Notes: a model not told the origin generated them from the sequence alone. A DNA stretch of 64,000 nucleotides from Patescibacteria group bacterium (GCA_041660605.1 JBAZWB010000001.1:462879-526878), one strand, 5' to 3'. Positions 5,666-28,318 are shown, counted from the first letter of the stretch. A program made the numbers and translations.

Positions 5666-5737
5666 GCCACCCTAGCTCAGTGGTAGAGCAACGGTTTTGT
5701 AAACCGTAGGTCGTCGGTTCAAGTCCGACGGGTGGCT
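5666..5737 (+). tRNA. tRNA-Thr (anticodon TGT)
   Basis: Acceptor GCCACCC/GGGTGGC, D arm GCTC-AGTGGT-AGAGC, anticodon arm ACGGT-TTTGTAA-ACCGT, T arm GTCGG-TTCAAGT-CCGAC. 72 nt; flanked by CCCGCCATAG / CTATGGCGGG. Confidence 0.85.
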
Positions 5738-5740
5738 ATG

Positions 5741-5808
5741 GCGGGATAAAGTAGAGCAACGGTTTTGTAAACCGTAGGTCGGGGGTTCGAATCCCTTCGC
5801 TGGCTCCA
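5741..5808 (+). pseudogene. chimeric tRNA pseudogene
   Basis: Copies tRNA-Thr(TGT) D-arm 3' strand through variable loop (AGAGCAACGGTTTTGTAAACCGTAGGTC), then a different T arm/acceptor ending in CCA. The 5' acceptor does not pair with the 3' strand. Confidence 0.35.
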
Positions 5809-5849
5809 GCCAAAATTATAAATAAATCATTAAAATGTAATAAAAATTT

Positions 5850-6005
5850 ATGTCACAGGACAATTTGTTAAAATTTGAATGCAAGGAATGCCATCACATC
5901 AATTACCATTCCAAAAAGAATAAAAAAATTCTGAAGAACAGGATTGAATTGAAAAAATTCTGCAAATGGTGCAAAAAACATACCTTGCATAAGGAAACGA
6001 AATAA
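5850..6005 (+). CDS. rpmG: 50S ribosomal protein L33
   Basis: 51-aa ORF below the ORF-track cutoff: [51 protein letters not shown]. Zinc-ribbon C..C...C..C and C-terminal HTLHKETK are typical L33. Confidence 0.85.
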
Positions 6006-6144
6006 TGTTGAAAACCCCTTTCAGAAAGTGGTTTTCAATGCTTTCCGCAAACTAGATGATTCGCTCGCCCTGAAATGTCATGCCAGAGGCAGATCCGTCT
6101 TTGGCGGAAATTCAGGGCTCGCGGTTGATAAAATAAATTTTCAG

Positions 6145-6219
6145 GGGAGCATAGTGAAATGGCTATCACAAGGGTCTCCAAAACCCTTATTCTAGGTTCG
6201 AGTCCTAGTGCTCCCGCCA
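6145..6219 (+). tRNA. tRNA-Trp (anticodon CCA), CCA end encoded
   Basis: Acceptor GGGAGCA/TGCTCCC, anticodon arm AGGGT-CTCCAAA-ACCCT, T arm CTAGG-TTCGAGT-CCTAG, then GCCA. Confidence 0.85.
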
Positions 6220-6516
6220 GTGTCCGCCAACGGGCGCTTAGAGTGGAAAACTTTTCTAAAGAAATTTATAGTTAGAATCATGTTCAGCAAGGACATGGTG
6301 TATTTTGCATTAAATATATATTTTCTTTAACATTAAAATGAGGGAGGAAACGACGAATTTGTCACAAAAGAAATAGACGTCGGATAAGGAGCGGGTTAAC
6401 CCCCCCCCTCTTTTTTTGTGCTCAGCGGAAAATTTTACCACCCACGAAGCCAAAAAATAAAAAACCAGGCAAAGGCCCGGTTTTCCAGTTAGAGTACAAT
6501 TCGCTAAAGGAACAGA

Positions 6517-6879
6517 TTATGCTGCTCGTGTCCCGAACCACGAAGGTGGTTCAACGGGCTTCTCTCTTTCGGCGTCTGGTGGCATCAGTTCCGGGCAGTG
6601 TTCATCGATGATCATTTCCAGTTCCACACGTCGTTTTTGCTCCCAGACGTAGCGCTGGAATAGCTCGTTTACATACCACTGAACCAGCTCACCCACGCGA
6701 GCTCCGAATCGACGAGCCAGCATGTCGGTGAATTTCCTGTTCAGGCGTTCTTTCCAGTTTCGGCAAACCTGAAGCGTGATATTCAACCGTCTCATTTTTG
6801 CCAGACCTTCTTCATTCATGAGGTACCTCATTTCCGTAGCAGTTGTGAAAACTACATTATTGTAACTTTCTGCTACCAC
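6517..6879 (-). CDS. hypothetical protein in a compositionally atypical (GC-richer) segment
   Basis: 120-aa ORF, basic and W/R-rich. Local sequence is visibly GC-richer than its flanks. Confidence 0.35.
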   Translation of the reverse strand: MVAESYNNVVFTTATEMRYLMNEEGLAKMRRLNITLQVCRNWKERLNRKFTDMLARRFGARVGELVQWYVNELFQRYVWEQKRRVELEMIIDEHCPELMPPDAEREKPVEPPSWFGTRAA

Positions 6880-13871: not shown

Positions 13872-14666
13872 ATGGACAACATACTTGAGCCAAAAACAGA
13901 AGACCGCCGTTTTATCAAGTTGCGGCGTTTTAATTTAATAATGGCGGTTTTGCATTTTGTCCAGGGAATCGTCATGCTGGTTTTAAGCACGGATTTTTCC
14001 CTGCCAGTCACCTCCGCTTTTCTCAAATTTAATACTGCCTCGCAGGCACTCCAGCCAAGTTTGCACACACTATTTAATCTGCGCATCGGGCCATTAGTGG
14101 CTGGATTTCTTTTTATCTCGGCTTTGGCTCACGCCCTGATTTCAATCTGCCCTGGCATTAACCGGTGGTATAATCGCAATTTAGCCAAAGGCATTAATCT
14201 GGCCCGCTGGATGGAATACGCATTCAGTTCTTCACTGATGATCGTTGTCATCGCCATGCTGGTGGGCATTTATGACATAGTCAGTTTGTTGGCGATATTT
14301 TTCCTAAACGCCATGATGATATTATTCGGCTGGATAATGGAAGTGCATAACCAGACCACCCAAAAGACCAACTGGATCTCGTTTTGGTTCGGTAGCCTGG
14401 CCGGGTTTATTACCTGGGTGGCTGTGGCCATTTATTTATTCGGTTCCGGCGAGCCGGGGATGAGAGCACCGACGTTTGTCTATTGGATTTATTTTTCCAT
14501 ATTCCTGTTTTTCAACTGTTTTGCCATTAACATGATTTTGCAGTATAAGAAAGCGGGTAAGTGGCGGGATTACCTTTACGGCGAACGAGCTTATATCATC
14601 CTCAGCCTGGTCGCCAAGTCATTACTGGCCTGGCAGGTTTTTTTCGGCACTTTGCGGCCGGTTTGA
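13872..14666 (+). CDS. heliorhodopsin
   Basis: 7-TM protein collinear with HeR 48C12: RWMEYAFSSSLMIVVIA, AIFFLNAMMILFGW, FWFGSLAGFITW, GERAYIILSLVAKSLLAWQVFFGTL, including the TM7 lysine. Confidence 0.85.
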   Translation: MDNILEPKTEDRRFIKLRRFNLIMAVLHFVQGIVMLVLSTDFSLPVTSAFLKFNTASQALQPSLHTLFNLRIGPLVAGFLFISALAHALISICPGINRWYNRNLAKGINLARWMEYAFSSSLMIVVIAMLVGIYDIVSLLAIFFLNAMMILFGWIMEVHNQTTQKTNWISFWFGSLAGFITWVAVAIYLFGSGEPGMRAPTFVYWIYFSIFLFFNCFAINMILQYKKAGKWRDYLYGERAYIILSLVAKSLLAWQVFFGTLRPV

Positions 14667-20745: not shown

Positions 20746-22302
20746 ATGCCCCAAAAAACTACAAAAAAATCCAACGGCACGAACGCCGGCTTTGAAGCGA
20801 CTCTCTGGGCCGCAGCTGACAAAATGCGCAATAACATGGATCCGGGTGAATATAAGCACGTGGTTCTTGGTTTGATTTTTATCAAGTACATTTCCGACGC
20901 TTTTGAAGAGATTTACAACAAAATCAAAGCTGATCCTGACCACTACGAAGGTCAAGAAGAAGATAGAGACGCATACACGTCGGAAAGTGTCTTCTGGGTG
21001 CCACAAGATGCACGTTGGGAATATTTGAAATCAAATGCCAAGAAGCCAGAAATCGGCAAGCTTGTTGACGATGCAATGGTTGCAATTGAGAAAGACAACC
21101 CCAGCCTAAAAGGAGTTCTCCCAAAAAGTTATGCCCGTCCTGACTTAGACAAAGTTCGGCTTGGCGAGTTAATCGACCTCATCAGCACCATCGGCCTCGG
21201 CGATAAAGAAAGTCGAAGTAAAGATATTCTTGGTGGCGTCTATGAGTATTTCCTCGGACGGTTTGCTTCTGCCGAAGGTAAGGGCGGTGGTGAATACTTT
21301 ACTCCAAAATCTGTTGTGAAATTGCTCGTGGAAATGCTCGAGCCATACAAAGGCCGCGTCTACGACCCCTGTTGCGGTTCAGGCGGCATGTTTGTGCAAA
21401 GTGAAAAATTCGTTGAAACACACGGTGGCAGCAGGCACGACCTCGCAATTTATGGACAGGAATCAAACCCGACCACTTGGCGCCTGTGTAAAATGAACTT
21501 GGCCATTCGCGGAATCGAAGGCGACCTTGGGCCTCATAACGCCGACACATTTCACAATGATTTACATAAAGAGCTCAAAGCTGATTACATTCTCGCCAAT
21601 CCGCCATTCAATATCAGCGACTGGGGCGGTGAGAGATTGAAAGACGATGTCCGCTGGAGTCTTGGCGTGCCGCCTGCAGGTAATGCCAACTACGGCTGGA
21701 TTCAGCATATGGTGCATCATTTAGCCACTACTGGTATCGCTGGGTTTGTCTTGGCAAATGGCTCACTGTCGTCAAACACATCTGGTGAAGGGGAGATACG
21801 AAAAAAGATGATCGAAAAAGGCCTGGTGGACTGTATCGTCGCTATGCCAAGTCAGCTTTTCTACACCACGCAAATTCCTGCGTGTTTGTGGTTTGTTTCA
21901 CGGGAGCGGCACGACCACAAATTCCGCGACCGACATGATGAAATTCTATTCATTGACGCTCGTAAAATGGGGACAATGATCACGCGTAAAAATAGGGAAT
22001 TAACCACAGAAGATATTGAAAAAATATCTGGCGTCTACCACGACTGGCGCAATAAAAAGGGTAACTATAAAGACGTTAAGGGTTTTTGCAAAGCAGCGAA
22101 AATTGAGGAAGTTGAAAAAGCCGGATTTGTACTCACCCCCGGCCGTTATGTTGGCACGGATTATGTGGAAGAAGATGACGGTACTTTTGAAGAGAAAATG
22201 ACAAAATTGACGAAGGAATTATCTGGTCAATTCAAGCAGTCAAAAGAACTTGAGGAAAGGGTGAAGAAAAACCTCAAAGATATCGGCTATGAAATCAAAT
22301 AA
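20746..22302 (+). CDS. hsdM: Type I restriction-modification system methyltransferase subunit
   Basis: HsdM N-terminal domain plus N6-MTase motifs ([13 protein letters not shown] in [12 protein letters not shown]). Confidence 0.9.
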
Positions 22303-23251
22303 AGTTTTAGTAATCTTTGAGACGAATATTATTAGAAATCCGAAATATAATTTTGGCGAAATAGATTTTGGATCGGATTTTGGCTCAGTACGAGAATATG
22401 TAAGAAATAATGAACTAACAAATCTTGTTGATTTCGCAATTGCACAGATGAGTATCGACGAACTATCTTATGGAAGGCAAGCAGAATATCAGAGTGATAA
22501 GGGGAAGCTTTTTGAGTTAAGTAGCAGAATGAATGGCGTGCCAGGATTTAAAATTATTAATCCGCAAGATGATTTTCAGTTTCCCACATTTTATAGGGGG
22601 CATGTTAATAAATTTATTAAACGAAATAAGTTGATCATAATTGGGTATCCTCCAAAAATAGTCTTTAGTAATGTAATTCTAAGAAGTTTAGAGAAGCGCC
22701 CGCCTTTTTTGGTGTCAAATCAACATTCTGATTATGGGTTTAAAGATGTAATCATTTGGGAATCGATTTTATGCTTTAAGTCAATACGAAAATATAATAA
22801 AGTTGTTTTATTTACAAATGATTTAGGATTTGAAAGTCAATGCGAAAAAGAATTTTCAAAAGTTCACCCGTGTTACTTTAAAATTTGTAAAGATTTCGAG
22901 AGTGTTATTAAAGAACTTGAAGTAAGTGAGGGTATCAAAGTTGCGATTGAGGGTGACACTGATATAGCGGACGATGAGCGCACGGAACTTATAGCGCTGG
23001 TGTATTCAGATTATTTTATTTCAAGTTTAACTAACTTTATTAAAGAAAGTATAAAAATTGATGAAGGTAGATCTATTGAGCTTTTGAGTCCGATGACTAA
23101 TTCTGAAGACAATATTATTGACGATGAAGTCGTTGGAAAAATTATTTATTCCAAAGCCAGGGTTAAAGTTGATGGTGAAATAAAGAGAATTAATATTAAA
23201 ACTGTTCTTGATGATGCTAATGGCATAGAAAGTCATGAGATATATGAATAA
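22289..23251 (+). CDS. unknown protein with predicted PIN-like N-terminal domain, embedded between hsdM and hsdS
   Basis: Pattern [11 protein letters not shown] ... DVIIWESIL ... VLFTNDLGF resembles the PIN acidic-residue layout; overlaps hsdM by 14 nt and hsdS by 17 nt; very AT-rich. Confidence 0.45.
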
Positions 23252-24392
23252 AACGAGCGCAAAATCTATTAAGTCGGAAACGGAGTATTACCCAGATGGG
23301 TGGAAACTGAATATAATTGGGGATTTTTTATCACTAGAATATGGCAAAGGACTAAAAGAAGATCTGCGAAAGCCGGGTAAGGTTCCTGTGTATGGTTCGA
23401 ATGGTGTTGTTGGTTATCATAATGAACAAATGGTAGATGGTCCAGGAATTATTGTTGGAAGGAAGGGGAGTGCGGGGGAGGTTATTTTTTCTAAAAAAGG
23501 ATTTTTCCCAATTGATACAACATATTTTGTTAAAACTAATTTAGATAAAAGCTATATATATTATTTGTTAAAAAACCTTGACCTTAAAAAATTTGTTGGT
23601 AGTAGCGCAGTCCCTGGTTTAAATAGGAATGATGTTTATTCTCAAATAGTAGCAATACCCAAAGCGGAAAACGAACAACAAAAAATCGCCGAAATACTTT
23701 CTTCCCTCGACGACAAAATAGAGCTCAACCGGCAGATGAATGCAACCTTAGAAAAAATCGCCAGTACACTTTTCAAAAAATGGTTTGTGGATATTGGTGA
23801 TGAGTTGCCAAAGGGGTGGAAGAAAGGTGCAATCAGCGATTTCGGAAGTGTCATATGCGGGAAGACACCACCAAAATCGGTAAAGGAGTATTTTGGTGGC
23901 AATTTTCCTTTTATTAAAATACCCGATATGCATGGGAGTCCTTTTATCTTTATTACAGAAGATAGTCTTTCTGAGATGGGGATGAATTTTCAAAAAAATA
24001 AGGTAATCCCAGCTGGTTCTATTTGTGTAAGTTGTATTGCTACAGTTGGCTTAGTAAGTATGACGACCGTTAATTCGCAAACCAATCAGCAAATTAATTC
24101 GATTGTTCCTTCGGAGAAGTATTATCAGTTTTATCTATACGAAACATTTAAAAATATTAGTGGACTACTGCAAAGAATGGGTAGTAGTGGTTCTGCAACA
24201 CTAAATGTGAATACAACCTCTTTTTCCGCTATAGAAATATTAAGACCCACTGACGCAGCCCTAGAAAAATTCGACAGAATTGTAAGGCCATTTTTTGATC
24301 AAATAAAACATAATTTACAAGAAAATATCAATTTATCAATTCTTAGAGACTCACTTTTGCCTCGTTTAATGAGCGGAAGGATTAGGGTATGA
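23235..24392 (+). CDS. hsdS: Type I restriction-modification system specificity subunit
   Basis: Two target-recognition domains separated by conserved IPKAENEQQKIAEILSSLDDKIELNRQ; C-terminal LPRLMSG. Confidence 0.85.
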   Translation: MRYMNKTSAKSIKSETEYYPDGWKLNIIGDFLSLEYGKGLKEDLRKPGKVPVYGSNGVVGYHNEQMVDGPGIIVGRKGSAGEVIFSKKGFFPIDTTYFVKTNLDKSYIYYLLKNLDLKKFVGSSAVPGLNRNDVYSQIVAIPKAENEQQKIAEILSSLDDKIELNRQMNATLEKIASTLFKKWFVDIGDELPKGWKKGAISDFGSVICGKTPPKSVKEYFGGNFPFIKIPDMHGSPFIFITEDSLSEMGMNFQKNKVIPAGSICVSCIATVGLVSMTTVNSQTNQQINSIVPSEKYYQFYLYETFKNISGLLQRMGSSGSATLNVNTTSFSAIEILRPTDAALEKFDRIVRPFFDQIKHNLQENINLSILRDSLLPRLMSGRIRV

Positions 24393-25210
24393 TATTTTTA
24401 CGATATTTTATTAAAAGATATTGGTCATATATTATCAACGTTTGTGTTGGCATTTTTTCACTTTTAGCACCATTTATTTTTCCATTTCCAAAAAATATCT
24501 TTGGCGTTGAGTTGTCATTAGGAATATATCTTTCTGTTTTTTCATTATTTTTAGCATTTATTTTGTCTCTATTCCTAGCCTCCAGACCGAAAAAATTATT
24601 TCATATTTCTTTAACAAGTAGAAAACATGGTGATTTGTGGGTTGGCAATGGGACCTTTGACTATGACCGAGAACGTAAGACGCATTTCATTACCAATTCA
24701 TTTTATGGCTTTATTTTCCCACCAGCACTTAATTTAGTTGATTATAAAGTAACCTTTGAATTTAAGATTGCAACGTCGTGCCTTGGTGTAATTGTCCGGG
24801 CAGTAAATTCATACGATTTCATAATGCTACAAATTGAGAAGCAGGGCATTAACCCACATGTATTTTTGAATGGTGCTTGGCAACGATTTGAACATTCAGC
24901 GACAAATCTTTCATTTGTTCCTATGATAAATGAGGATAAATGGTATAAGGTCACAATATGTTGTTTAAAAAAGAAAATTTCCATTCAAATGATAGATTTT
25001 GATTTTAATCGCGAATGGCAAATTCCACAAACAATAGTTCTTAATTTTCCAAAAGGTAAACCTAAAGATAAAATACCGGGCGAAGAAATTCAAGTTGAGG
25101 AAGTTACACCAATATATTTACCTGTGAATTTAGATATTGGCACTATTGGTTTCAGGAACGCAGGTCAAGAAAAAGCGTATATAAAAAATGTTTATATTGA
25201 ATCAATTTAA
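24389..25210 (+). CDS. membrane-anchored protein of unknown function embedded between hsdS and hsdR (possible jelly-roll/LamG-like domain)
   Basis: Two N-terminal TM helices, then a ~200-aa soluble domain (YKVTFEFKIATSCLGVIVRAVNSYDFIMLQIE); ATGA overlap with hsdS. Confidence 0.45.
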   Translation: MIFLRYFIKRYWSYIINVCVGIFSLLAPFIFPFPKNIFGVELSLGIYLSVFSLFLAFILSLFLASRPKKLFHISLTSRKHGDLWVGNGTFDYDRERKTHFITNSFYGFIFPPALNLVDYKVTFEFKIATSCLGVIVRAVNSYDFIMLQIEKQGINPHVFLNGAWQRFEHSATNLSFVPMINEDKWYKVTICCLKKKISIQMIDFDFNREWQIPQTIVLNFPKGKPKDKIPGEEIQVEEVTPIYLPVNLDIGTIGFRNAGQEKAYIKNVYIESI

Positions 25211-25219
25211 TTAAGTTAC

Positions 25220-28200
25220 ATGTCATATAAAAAATACACCGAATCTGATTTAGAAAACGCAATCCTTGAATGGCTTGAGGAGTTAGGGCACTCGGTTATA
25301 TTTGGTCCAAATATTGCTTTTGATGGCGAATCGCCAGAACGCAAAACATATCAAGATATTGTTTTAGTTGAACGGCTGCGGGCTGCTGTCCAGCGAATCA
25401 ATGCTGAAATTCCTCATGAAGCGCGAGAAGAGGCAATAAAAAAAGTGGTTAACGCTGCGTATTCTAGCCCGAGCCCGATGGTTACCAATCGTGAGTTTCA
25501 TAGAATGTTGGTTGAAGGTGTTGATGTTGAATACCGACGTAAAGATGGGTCAATTGCAGGGGATAGAGTTTTACTTATTGATAAAGAGAAGCTAGGAAAC
25601 AATGACTGGCTGGCTGTGAATCAGTACACGGTCATTGAGAATAATCACAATCGACGGCCTGATGTGGTGGTGTTTGTGAATGGTTTGCCGTTGGTGGTGT
25701 TTGAGCTCAAAAATCCAGCGGATGAATATGCCAAAATTCAGGGTGCATTCAATCAGATTCAAACATACAAAAACGAGATTTCATCACTTTTTACTTATAA
25801 TGCATTTTGCGTAATTGTTGACCACGTGAAAAATGGGCTGGTGGGTACTATATCGGCAAACATGGATCGATTCATGAGCTGGAAAAGTGTTGATGGCCAG
25901 AAAGTTATTAAGAGTAATGATGTTGAGACACTGATAAAAGGAATGTTTGATAAGCAGCGTTTGCTGGATATTGTTTCGAATTTTATTGTATTTGAAGATG
26001 AAAAAGATTCTAAGAATAACGTCAATAGAACCACCAAGAAGCTCGCAGCGTATCACCAGTATTTTGCGGTAAATAAAGCTGTTGAGCGAACGGTTGTAGC
26101 GACATCGCCAGACGGTGATAGAAGGGCAGGGGTGGTGTGGCATACGCAAGGGTCAGGCAAGAGTTTGAGCATGGTGTTCTATGCCGGGAAGATTATCCAG
26201 CGGCTAGATAACCCAACGCTTGTACTACTTACCGACCGGAATGACTTAGATGGCCAGCTTTTCGGCGTGTTTTCCGGCTGCCATGATTTAGTTCGTCAAA
26301 CTCCAATGCAGGCAGATAATCGAGCACATTTAAAGACTCTGCTCAATGTGGCATCGGGCGGTGTTGTATTTACAACCATTCAAAAGTTTTTCCCTGAAGA
26401 TAAATTTGAAAAGCATCCATTACTTTCAGACCGCAAAAACATAGTCGTGATTGCTGATGAGGCGCACCGGAGCCAGTATGATTTTATTGACGGATTTGCG
26501 CGGCACATGCACGATGCTTTACCTAATGCATCGTTTATTGGCTTTACTGGTACGCCGATTGAACTATCCGATAAAAATACCCGGGCGGTGTTTGGAGAAT
26601 ACGTAGACGTGTATGATATTATTCGCGCGGTGAATGATAAAGCGACGGTGCCGATTTACTACGAAGCGCGGTTGGCAAAAATCGAGCTCATTAAAGCAGT
26701 CACGCCGACAATTGATAAGGATTTTGAAGAGCTGACCGAAGGTGAAGAGGTAGCAAAGAAAGAAAAACTCAAGAGTAAGTGGGCGCGGCTTGAAGCAATG
26801 ATTGGTTCCGAAAAGCGCATCGCCTTAATTGCTCGTGATATCATTGATCATTTTGAAGCGCGATGTTTTGCAATGGAAGGCAAGGGGATGATTGTGGCCA
26901 TGAGCCGAAGAATTGCAGTTGAATTGTATGAAGAAATTATTAAACTTCGGCCACAGTGGGCAAATACTGATTTACGAAAAGGTTTTATTAAAGTAGTAAT
27001 GACCGGATCAGCGAGCGACCCCGAAAATTACCAGCAACATATTCATACTAAAGATGATCGTGATGTTTTAGCGACTCGCATGAAAGATCCATCAGATGAA
27101 TTAAAGCTGGTGATTGTACGAGATATGTGGCTGACTGGTTTTGATGTGCCCTCACTTCATACGATGTATGTAGATAAACCGATGAAAGGGCATGGTCTGA
27201 TGCAGGCAATCGCACGTGTAAACCGAGTGTTTAAAGACAAACCAGGCGGATTGATTGTTGATTATCTTGGTATAGCGCCATCTTTGAAAGAGGCGGTTGC
27301 ACAGTATACGCAAGAAGGAAAAGAAGAGCCAACAATTGATCAAGAAGAGGCGGTGAGTGTTATGTTGAGTAAGTACGAGGTGGTGAAGGATATGTATCAT
27401 GAATTTGATTATAAGCAGTACTTTTCTGGTAAAGCCAAGGATAAAGCCGAGGTGGCTGGAAAGGCAATGGATTATATCCTGGGTTTAAGTGACGGGAAGA
27501 AACGCTATTTGCAAGCAGTAGCAGAATTATCTCAGGCCTTTGCCTTGTCTGTTCCAAATAGCGAAGCGTTGCGAATTCGTGATGAGGTAGCGTTTTTTCA
27601 AACTGTACGAGAATTTATTGCTTCATTTGAAAAAGGTGGTGGTTTGGGTGGGCCAACAATGGACGACTATGATCAGGCGATAAAGCAGCTCGTCGCTGGA
27701 GCGGTCGTATCAGATGAGGTAATTAATATTTTCAGTGCAGCTGGTTTGAAGACTCCAGACATTTCAATTCTTTCTGATGAATTTTTGAAAGAGGTGAAGA
27801 ATTTGAAACGAAAGAACGTTGCATTTGAGTTATTGAAAAAGTTGCTTAATGACGAAATTCGCTCCATGGAAAAGAAGTTTTTGGTAAAGTCGCGGTCATT
27901 CGCCAAAATGCTTGAAGAAACTATTAAGAAGTATCAAAATCAAACAATTGAAGTTGCGCAAGTTATTGCTGAGTTGGTTGATTTAGCTAAAAAGATTCGC
28001 GAAGAAAAGGGGAGAGGTGAAAATCTTAATCTTACTGAAGATGAGGTGTCATTTTATGACGCTCTTTGTGACAATGAGAGCGCTGTTCGCGAACTTGGCG
28101 ACGAAACACTGAAGAAGATTGCTCATGAACTCGTTTCGATGCTACGCAAAAATACTTCGATTGACTGGACACTCAAAGAACAGGTAAGGGCAAAATTACG

Positions 28201-28318
28201 AGTTTATGTGAAGAAGTTATTGAACAAGTTCAAATATCCGCCAGATAAACAAGAGGGAGCAACCAAGACAGTTTTAGAGCAAGCAGAAATTTTGTGTAAG
28301 GATTGGAGTGGGGAGTAA
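25220..28318 (+). CDS. hsdR: Type I restriction enzyme R subunit
   Basis: 1032 aa; helicase motif [13 protein letters not shown], motif [12 protein letters not shown]; HsdR N- and C-terminal architecture. Confidence 0.9.

Follow-up and report, generated by a model that had tools for sequence, protein, structure and literature searches.

A Type I restriction–modification operon from a Patescibacteria group bacterium with two candidate defence cargo genes between its subunit genes

Introduction

Restriction–modification (R-M) systems of Type I belong to the most common defences of bacteria, and phages routinely disable them by means of DNA mimics and peptides. The classic case of an embedded back-up that punishes this is PrrC, its gene occupying the hsdS–hsdR slot of EcoprrI, and PARIS is a later guardian system. 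PrrC and RloC are known embedded nucleases, of which PrrC provides the precedent for a guardian in a Type I locus. That genes embedded in Type I operons are defence candidates is an established idea. A 'guilt-by-embedding' preprint found 17,432 non-redundant genes that lie inside systems of the BREX, DISARM and Type I R-M kinds, and seven of the nine embedded candidates in that screen were validated. The coupling of PIN genes to Type I subunits was remarked upon in general terms in 2017 (PMC5499597). Here, we analysed a 64,000-nucleotide stretch of DNA from a Patescibacteria group bacterium (GCA_041660605.1 JBAZWB010000001.1:462879-526878), hereafter the window, in which positions 20,746 to 28,318 hold a Type I operon of the order hsdM-X-hsdS-Y-hsdR. 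The best explanation of this locus, to which we give a probability of about 60%, is that both gaps between the subunit genes are cargo slots, and that X and Y are two independent defence cargo genes. The features of the operon, all on the + strand, are as follows.

20746..22302, + strand: hsdM, Type I methyltransferase subunit, 518 residues (open reading frame (ORF) call, Pfam, PADLOC)
22289..23251, + strand: X, two-domain predicted nuclease, 320 residues, candidate cargo of the hsdM–hsdS slot (ORF call, homologues, AlphaFold2 (AF2) model)
22310..22831, + strand: N-terminal PIN domain of X (residues 8-181), Pfam PIN_12, the former DUF4935
22874..23248, + strand: C-terminal α+β domain of X (residues 196-320), orphan and fast-diverging
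23235..24392, + strand: hsdS, specificity subunit, 385 residues, start possibly at 23244 (Pfam, PADLOC)
24389..25210, + strand: Y, predicted membrane-anchored β-sandwich protein, 273 residues, candidate cargo of the hsdS–hsdR slot (ORF call, profile search)
24431..24580, + strand: two predicted transmembrane (TM) helices of Y (residues 15-33 and 46-64; hydropathy scan, AF2)
24638..25207, + strand: Concanavalin-A-like/DUF1080-like β-sandwich domain of Y (residues ~84-273)
25220..28318, + strand: hsdR, restriction/translocase subunit, 1032 residues (Pfam, PADLOC)

Comparison with PrrC, encoded in the Type IC locus EcoprrI, revealed a likeness of arrangement rather than of sequence or fold. X resembles PrrC in being a single gene embedded in an hsd operon with no separate antitoxin, and its subfamily is embedded in a Type I operon in every informative locus sampled. 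Unlike prrC, X usually lies between hsdM and hsdS, and it is Y that shares the hsdS–hsdR slot with prrC of EcoprrI. Moreover, PrrC and RloC combine an ABC-ATPase with a HEPN-type nuclease, whereas X consists of a PIN domain and an orphan C-terminus, and Y is a β-sandwich protein. The host Type I family differs as well, the HsdR of the window carrying a T1RH-like_C domain and being only distantly related to EcoR124I. The initial annotation had set X and Y apart from PrrC and RloC, and indeed neither gives a match of that kind in PADLOC, Pfam or NCBIfam. In the sets of the embedding screen (HEC/PDC), most of the genes found within Hma, BREX, DISARM and Type I R-M systems serve defence, and a PIN effector is among the validated examples. 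Compared with HEC-03, which pairs an ABC ATPase with a PIN protein, X is a single gene without an ATPase partner, and X and Y match no PADLOC v2.0.0 model: for X, the searches of PADLOC v2.0.0 with PDC included (0 families at E ≤ 0.1), NCBIfam and PHROGs returned nothing, as did those for Y in Pfam (E ≤ 0.1), PADLOC v2.0.0 including PDC (E ≤ 0.1), NCBIfam and PHROGs.

An intact-looking Type I operon

All three subunits of a Type I enzyme are encoded in the operon. HsdM matches Pfam N6_Mtase (PF02384, 3.9e-110) and HsdM_N (PF12161, 9.4e-28) as well as MTase_I of PADLOC (7e-238), its nearest solved structure is 3khk (E 8e-144), and its translation shows the CGSGGM and NPPF motifs. HsdS matches Methylase_S (PF01420, 4.1e-44) in two stretches and Specificity_I of PADLOC over residues 22-384 (5e-108), and possesses the two target-recognition domains of a Type I specificity subunit. 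HsdR is covered by the Pfam domains HSDR_N, SWI2_SNF2/ResIII, T1R_D3-like and T1RH-like_C and scores 1130 bits against REase_I of PADLOC; it thus combines the PD-(D/E)xK nuclease, SF2 motor and C-terminal assembly domain of Type I enzymes, and its translation keeps the PD...ELK and QxxxY nuclease motifs. Given that the catalytic motifs are retained in HsdM and HsdR, the R-M system looks intact. Judged from its sequence, the operon is apparently a functional Type I R-M system of a widespread family. We defined this family by two features, an HsdM that is 50-82% identical to that of the window across the loci sampled, and a HindI-like C-terminal domain in HsdR. The relatives at loci L001, L005 and L008 share 77-82% identity in HsdM and 69-76% in HsdR with the window.

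The five genes are tightly packed. The ORF list and the junction sequences showed that X starts before the hsdM stop with an overlap of 14 nt, that X and hsdS overlap by 17 nt (8 nt if hsdS begins at the ATG at 23244), that hsdS and Y meet in an ATGA overlap, and that a gap of 9 nt separates Y from hsdR; these are the same five + strand genes, coordinates and junctions that the initial annotation had given. Since X and Y are co-oriented with the hsd genes and overlap or abut them, their products are very probably synthesised along with the Hsd proteins. We infer co-transcription of X, Y and the hsd genes from the gene spacing, and co-translation likewise. The recurrence of the hsdM-X-hsdS arrangement in many independent loci, as described below, places it far beyond chance.

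The G+C contents of hsdM, X, hsdS, Y and hsdR are 0.459, 0.315, 0.358, 0.313 and 0.420, respectively, against 0.44 for the whole window. The previously noted AT-richness of X and Y relative to the hsd genes is therefore correct with respect to hsdM and hsdR, but hsdS is AT-rich as well, so that the AT-rich unit is the whole X-hsdS-Y block. We looked for sharp recombination edges around this block within hsdM and hsdR and found none: HsdM is evenly 70-88% identical to its end, and the lower conservation of the HsdR N-terminus is only the usual pattern. A repeat search of the window detected neither inverted hsdS copies nor flanking direct repeats.

X is a PIN_12 protein with a fast-diverging C-terminal domain

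Profile comparison revealed that residues 8-181 of X match Pfam PIN_12 (PF16289) over the full 172-position profile with 48.5 bits, against a cut-off of 32, and PF16289 is precomputed on 15 of 17 X homologues. The 2017 classification of PIN proteins described this family, then DUF4935, as PIN-like and of 'function unknown'. Its members, ~350 residues long, were said to have conserved PIN acidic residues, a helical insertion that follows strand 2, and a poorly conserved α/β region at the C-terminus without known relatives (PMC5499597). X fits this description in its acidic residues, in a long helix (residues 53-80) after strand 2, and in its α+β C-terminus, as seen in the AF2 model (predicted local distance difference test score (pLDDT) of 82). 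The PIN-like N-terminus and the C-terminus without a match, both proposed earlier from the DNA, are thereby borne out. The accompanying description of X as undescribed is not wholly right, as its family is in Pfam as PIN_12/DUF4935 and was classified in 2017 as PIN-like with no known function.

In an alignment of 71 X relatives, the positions D/E11, T12, N13, E58, R132, P139, F140, S147, D148, G150-D153, W157, E158, D178 and E188 are conserved in 65-71 of the sequences. Among the conserved acidic sites, D/E11, E58, D178 and E188 lie outside the patterns with which the relatives were collected. Residue 11 (22319-22321) is Glu in all seven members of the clade to which X of the window belongs and Asp in 65 of the 71 relatives. 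X is thus predicted from sequence to be a metal-dependent nuclease of the PIN_12/DUF4935 family with a hypervariable C-terminal domain. Within the nearest clade, the C-terminal domain is 25-37% identical, compared with 39-44% for the PIN domain, and further out it becomes unalignable. This part of X has no Pfam match. The idea that it is an adaptor shared with other effectors was rejected, as an exhaustive phmmer search of 1.84 billion representatives returned only the close clade and repeat-protein noise.

A sequence-profile search of PDB gave no solved relatives of X or Y. Structure comparison of the AF2 model showed that the PIN fold of X resembles VapC and PcrIIC1. X shares with VapC the PIN fold and its acidic active site, but at 320 residues it is much longer than VapC (~135 residues), from which it also differs in its extra C-terminal domain, its long helical insert and its embedding in an hsd operon, where the upstream gene is hsdM instead of a VapB-like gene. 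No VapB-like ORF adjoins X, and no small ORF lies between hsdM and X, either in the window or in its relatives. The best structural match is PcrIIC1, a PIN-domain accessory of type II-C Cas9 that raises its DNA targeting, which raises the alternative that X is no toxin but a 'pro-restriction' accessory that binds the Type I complex and improves its DNA binding, cleavage or degradation. PcrIIC1 differs from X in having only 134 residues, an identity of 12%, a CRISPR rather than an R-M context, and no relationship found at the level of sequence. We consider such an accessory role distinctly unlikely.

X-type genes are recurrently embedded in Type I operons

To the survey of gene neighbourhoods, a strict-pattern scan of genome contigs contributed three loci with X relatives, and a pattern scan of metagenomes yielded 322 confirmed relatives, from the best 80 of which loci were taken. 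All sampled loci were searched by tblastn with HsdM, HsdS and HsdR of the window, and dereplication of the X-like proteins at 80% identity left 52 clusters from bacteria, archaea and gut metagenomes. In 49 of the 52, an hsd gene directly flanks X on the same strand; the remaining three have less than 800 bp of flank and are uninformative, so that no informative cluster lacks a flanking hsd gene. The survey, which had been proposed in the initial annotation, thus found X recurrently inside hsd operons (49/49 informative clusters). The order is hsdM-X-hsdS(-hsdR) in 34 of the 52 clusters and hsdM-hsdS-X-hsdR in 6-7. Another seven have hsdM-X with no hsd gene downstream, five of them owing to an early contig end and two with more than 3 kb of hsd-free flank, and in one further cluster, from a short contig, hsdS downstream of X is the only hsd gene seen. 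X mostly begins at -11 to +35 nt relative to the end of hsdM, often with an overlap of stop and start, and a few loci have a larger gap or an extra gene in between. We consider a functional link between X and Type I R-M highly probable.

The closest full-length homologues of X, 35-40% identical, come from three independent loci, each of the order hsdM-X-hsdS-[other gene]-hsdR and set in unrelated flanks (rpsP/trmD; lepA/prfB/ftsEX/relA; Mrr/HTH/M78). Relatives at 28-30% identity occur in the order hsdM-[unknown gene of ~300 residues]-PIN_12-hsdS-hsdR. The gene of ~300 residues between hsdM and the PIN gene in these loci (L012-L015, e.g. L012 7070-7987) overlaps the hsdM stop and has no Pfam match. 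Two contigs of archaeal metagenome-assembled genomes carry hsdM, an X relative and hsdS in this order; hsdR is visible only on the Methanosarcinales contig, the sole one of the two that is long enough. A cultured example is found on plasmid pBT62A of B. thuringiensis, in which hsdM is followed by a 'PIN domain-containing protein' gene (WP_141552299.1) and then by hsdS. Scans of viral contigs detected eight X relatives, half of them still within hsd operons, and no relative of Y. As a separate observation, phage contig L111 (3562-8782) bears a PIN_12-like ORF (5710-6807) between the genes for S-adenosylmethionine synthetase and the large terminase, outside any hsd embedding. Another observation concerns ten X-bearing metagenome operons, several of them from the gut (L043, L049, L064, L071, L073-L075, L085, L086 and L094), which contain inverted hsdS copies and, downstream of X, a tyrosine recombinase gene (Phage_integrase, 1.6e-31). 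These hsdS 'shufflons' are phase-variable, with the PIN gene immediately upstream of the invertible region.

The position between hsdM and hsdS also bears on the possibility that X acts on its own operon, by processing hsd mRNA or by setting the specificity or stoichiometry of the methyltransferase, in other words as a regulator and not an effector. Translational coupling at this junction usually fixes the M:S ratio (PMC3510504), and in a study of Prevotella it was speculated that specificity might be influenced by a gene of unknown function, not confirmed as PIN_12, located between hsdM and hsdS. Nevertheless, X is also found between hsdS and hsdR, the slot is vacant or otherwise occupied in sister operons, and the sequence gives no pointer to an RNA target inside the operon, which makes this role highly improbable.

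X evolves rapidly and occupies a cargo slot

In the three closest operons, X is only 35-39% identical although HsdM is 77-82% and HsdR 69-76% identical. Over 47 operons, the divergence of X follows that of HsdM loosely (Spearman 0.43, a descriptive value from non-independent pairs), and at HsdM identities of 0.8-0.9 the PIN domain of X shows identities anywhere between 0.32 and 0.79. Such a spread suggests exchange or rapid evolution, and it is among the observations that would suit a selfish addiction or stabilisation module, neutralised by its own C-terminus or by the Hsd proteins, whose loss with the operon would be lethal and which would have no direct anti-phage role. Further points in this direction are the VapC-like fold of X, its place beside hsdS within a central block that is AT-rich and diverges fast, and the toxin–antitoxin (TA) pairs that fill the same slot elsewhere, links between TA and R-M systems having been discussed (PMC5499597). 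Against it, a gene for a labile antitoxin is absent, and X persists in very divergent hosts (archaea, Patescibacteria and Bacillota); in addition, addiction and defence are not mutually exclusive. A purely selfish X seems very unlikely to us.

Sampling of plasmid-borne hsdM homologues, 57-66% identical to HsdM of the window, for their next gene showed what else the gap may hold. A gene for a PD-(D/E)xK nuclease follows hsdM in Clostridium estertheticum, and nucleotidyltransferase/HEPN-type (HEPN/MNT) pairs follow it in Cyanobacterium and Acetobacter, whereas in other plasmids, as discussed below, hsdS comes directly after hsdM. As the gap is either empty or otherwise filled in sister operons, we regard it as a cargo slot of which PIN_12 is one recurrent occupant, next to nuclease or RNase modules of other kinds.

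Y is a predicted membrane-anchored β-sandwich protein

Y consists of two N-terminal hydrophobic helices, at residues 15-33 and 46-64 by hydropathy and at 2-30 and 43-65 in the AF2 model, and a soluble domain of ~200 residues, an architecture already noted in the initial annotation and upheld by both methods. By profile search, Y belongs to a family with at least 179 members, each about 255-330 residues long, whose named sources are mainly uncultured Patescibacteria of the candidate phyla radiation (CPR), most members carrying no source name. PF06439 is precomputed on some Y homologues, 'faint' where its strength is stated, and Y itself remains unmatched. Structure comparison of the model predicted a concanavalin-A-like (DUF1080-like) β-sandwich. 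Among seven Y homologues, 45 columns are invariant, and as many of these are polar, a conserved binding or catalytic site is suggested. Family members have ~3.3 Lys/Arg residues before the first TM helix, few in the loop, and ~3.5 past the second; by the positive-inside rule, the topology is predicted to be N-in/C-in with the β-sandwich in the cytoplasm. Y thus shares its fold with DUF1080/3-keto-disaccharide hydrolases, CBM66 and YesU-type proteins, but differs from them in its two N-terminal TM helices, the lack of a signal peptide, the predicted cytoplasmic orientation and the lack of a PF06439 match. Members of these groups are typically secreted or periplasmic. Cap15 of CBASS, with two TM helices and a β-barrel, may offer at most a functional analogy to Y.

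The hsdS–hsdR slot holds many cargoes, of which Y is one

In a small sample of eight Y-family contexts, two lie within Type I operons, namely the window and P0137 from a candidate division CPR1 genome. The P0137 gene directly follows hsdS with the same ATGA overlap and is itself followed by a 51-residue ORF, an AAA_14/DUF4143 ATPase gene and hsdR. The HsdR of that operon bears an inserted GIY-YIG domain and is 35-38% identical to that of the window in the N-terminal half and 26-50% in C-terminal pieces. A Bro-N protein gene was also observed upstream in operons of this type (L120-L124, e.g. L120 1560-8547). Outside hsd operons, one member is preceded by genes for an MmeI-like Type IIG enzyme and a DpnII-MboI endonuclease, and another has an HNH gene and an R-M system of the HpaII type nearby. 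The proposed survey of Y neighbourhoods thus placed six of eight contexts outside hsd operons, two of these six beside other R-M systems, and found one other homologue in the hsdS–hsdR slot.

Several lines of evidence bear on whether Y, or with less likelihood X, is a neutral hitchhiker, the gaps tolerating insertions as a 'genomic sink' and Y being an ordinary carbohydrate-related membrane protein of Patescibacteria. Most Y contexts are outside R-M systems, the fold is that of lectins, carbohydrate-binding modules and DUF1080, the family is concentrated in Patescibacteria, and the AT-rich central block suggests a foreign origin. Arguing in the opposite direction are the second, independent case, an unrelated Type I operon in which hsdS likewise meets the Y homologue in an ATGA overlap, the two further contexts that abut other R-M systems, the overwhelmingly defence-type character of the other slot occupants, and the predicted cytoplasmic orientation, which would be odd for a glycan-binding module. 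We judge the hitchhiker reading rather unlikely.

The other occupants were identified in the X-bearing operons, where the hsdS–hsdR slot contains ~20 mutually unrelated families, none of which is Y. Their Pfam identities include CAP12/Pycsar-type TIR (four loci), FRG, trypsin-like peptidase, Fic, Abi_C with DUF3800, AbiTii and HAD-like proteins, and many more of these slot proteins have no Pfam match; plasmid operons add FRG and DUF2939. X and Y as a conserved pair can be dismissed, since the slot genes of ~275 residues in the closest X operons are unrelated to Y (BLASTP E > 0.1). Given that this slot is dominated by defence-type genes, we take Y as one of many alternative cargoes. The sister cargoes (HEPN/MNT, PD-(D/E)xK, FRG, TIR, AbiTii, Abi_C and Fic) resemble X and Y in sitting in the same two slots, in operons that have an HsdM 50-66% identical or that bear X, but are unrelated to them in sequence, and several, unlike X and Y, have recognised defence or TA roles.

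Two observations were made on the tail of HsdR. The Abi_C protein in one hsdS–hsdR slot (L068 6437-7543) has a sub-threshold match to T1RH-like_C (22 bits against 26.8; BLASTP E 0.09), and the HsdR tail of the window (residues 900-1022; 27917-28285) matches the PADLOC candidate PDC-S15 (3.5e-9). Some cargo proteins may borrow the C-terminal tail of HsdR, possibly to dock on the methyltransferase core.

A putative model for the two cargo genes

A VapC-like nuclease produced along with HsdM could not be freely active; X should therefore be latent, or specific for a substrate absent from healthy cells. We thus propose a putative model for X. In this model, X would be a latent VapC-like RNase without a separate antitoxin, held inactive by the methyltransferase core, by the C-terminal domain of X itself, or by both. 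Once a phage blocks or escapes restriction, X would be released and act as a second-line RNase, a PrrC-like guardian, with the hypervariable C-terminal domain as the putative sensor. The model is reminiscent of PrrC in its logic of a latent RNase that is silenced by the R-M enzyme and freed on anti-restriction. It is this analogy, along with the HEPN/MNT RNase modules in the same slot of sister operons, that makes a second-line RNase the best guess for X. As latency, trigger, RNA substrate and anti-phage effect are all deduced by analogy, we advance the mechanism tentatively, as a possibility held at somewhat less than even odds. In a broader form, which we find unlikely, hsd-embedded PIN_12 proteins of human-gut bacteria, Bacillota, Patescibacteria and Methanosarcinales would be an unrecognised and widespread single-chain 'guardian' nuclease, structurally unrelated to PrrC, that docks on the methyltransferase core, uses its C-terminal domain as a sensor or decoy for anti-restriction proteins, and cleaves RNA when restriction is blocked. 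Y would be a second cargo, independent of X. It would most likely be an effector or sensor that acts on the membrane or localises there, with a membrane tether for the complex as a further candidate. The chances that Y has a defence role seem evenly balanced. On a bolder reading, its predicted cytoplasmic lectin fold might detect phage DNA that carries sugar modifications, or hold the R-M complex to the membrane at the point of DNA entry.

A number of observations weigh against the two-cargo interpretation and its mechanism. The search patterns were built from embedded X sequences, and for this reason the 49 of 49 speaks for one subfamily and not for PIN_12 as a whole; more distant PIN_12 genes are solitary or on phage contigs, and DUF4935 genes were reported to be 'usually' expressed as mono-cistrons (PMC5499597). 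X is also optional, as several hsdM homologues, about 58-66% identical, have hsdS straight after them; these are on plasmids of the Bacillus cereus group, on Rhizobium pRL11 and on a plasmid of Acinetobacter. The Glu that replaces Asp at the first PIN site in the clade of the window might mean that catalysis is altered or weakened. A shared assembly region of X and the C-terminus of HsdR was considered and rejected (hhalign probability 0.6%). As for Y, six of its eight contexts are outside hsd operons, four of these without obvious defence neighbours, and its fold is usual for carbohydrate-binding or hydrolase modules, not for known defence effectors. In addition, promoter and terminator scans of the operon gave counts not above those of shuffles. 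The initial suggestion that X and Y are candidate R-M-associated effectors or regulators is partly supported, by the embedding of X and by the lack, for X and Y alike, of matches in PADLOC or to any housekeeping family. Y is mostly found elsewhere, and X is optional.

We found no description of PIN_12 inside hsd operons in the literature searched. A dedicated and widespread subfamily of PIN_12 Type I passengers, comparable to PrrC in its embedding and unrelated in fold, appears to be new, as do the two-slot architecture of this Type I family and Y as a candidate cargo combining TM helices with a concanavalin-A-like domain. Should the PIN_12 gene turn out to encode another guardian, of a structure unlike that of PrrC, 'restriction plus built-in abortive infection' would be a general design and not an E. 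coli curiosity, and a Pfam family without a function since 2017 would gain a testable one. The hsd-nested PIN_12 genes number hundreds of metagenomic loci and reach from phase-variable gut systems to Bacillota, Patescibacteria and archaeal operons, with pBT62A of B. thuringiensis and its WP_141552299.1 as a cultured entry point. The survey also maps the family, in which the hsdM and hsdR arms are conserved and two slots take up cargo; a search of these slots could yield more defence genes, and Y is such a candidate, its combination of domains being unseen in known systems. Should X and Y both be hitchhikers, what remains is an R-M operon of the ordinary kind.

Neighbouring genes

Directly downstream of hsdR, the gene at 28625-29359 encodes a protein with a MerR-type helix-turn-helix (HTH) domain (Pfam MerR 4e-13; PADLOC mad1 8.5e-11), whose C-terminal half looks GHKL-ATPase-like by eye and has no profile match. 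The following gene, at 29369-29698, encodes a DUF4325 STAS-like protein of 109 residues (PF14213, 1e-5). Together the two look like a partner-switching module, perhaps a further unit of defence or regulation. Genes for a YgjP-like metallopeptidase (30270-30818; PF01863, 3e-45) and an HTH+Fic protein (31001-31930; PF02661, 5e-18) come next on the same strand, and in view of these the R-M operon heads a small island of defence- or TA-like genes. On the other side, ~6 kb upstream of the operon, lies a heliorhodopsin gene (13872-14666; PF18761, E 2e-102).

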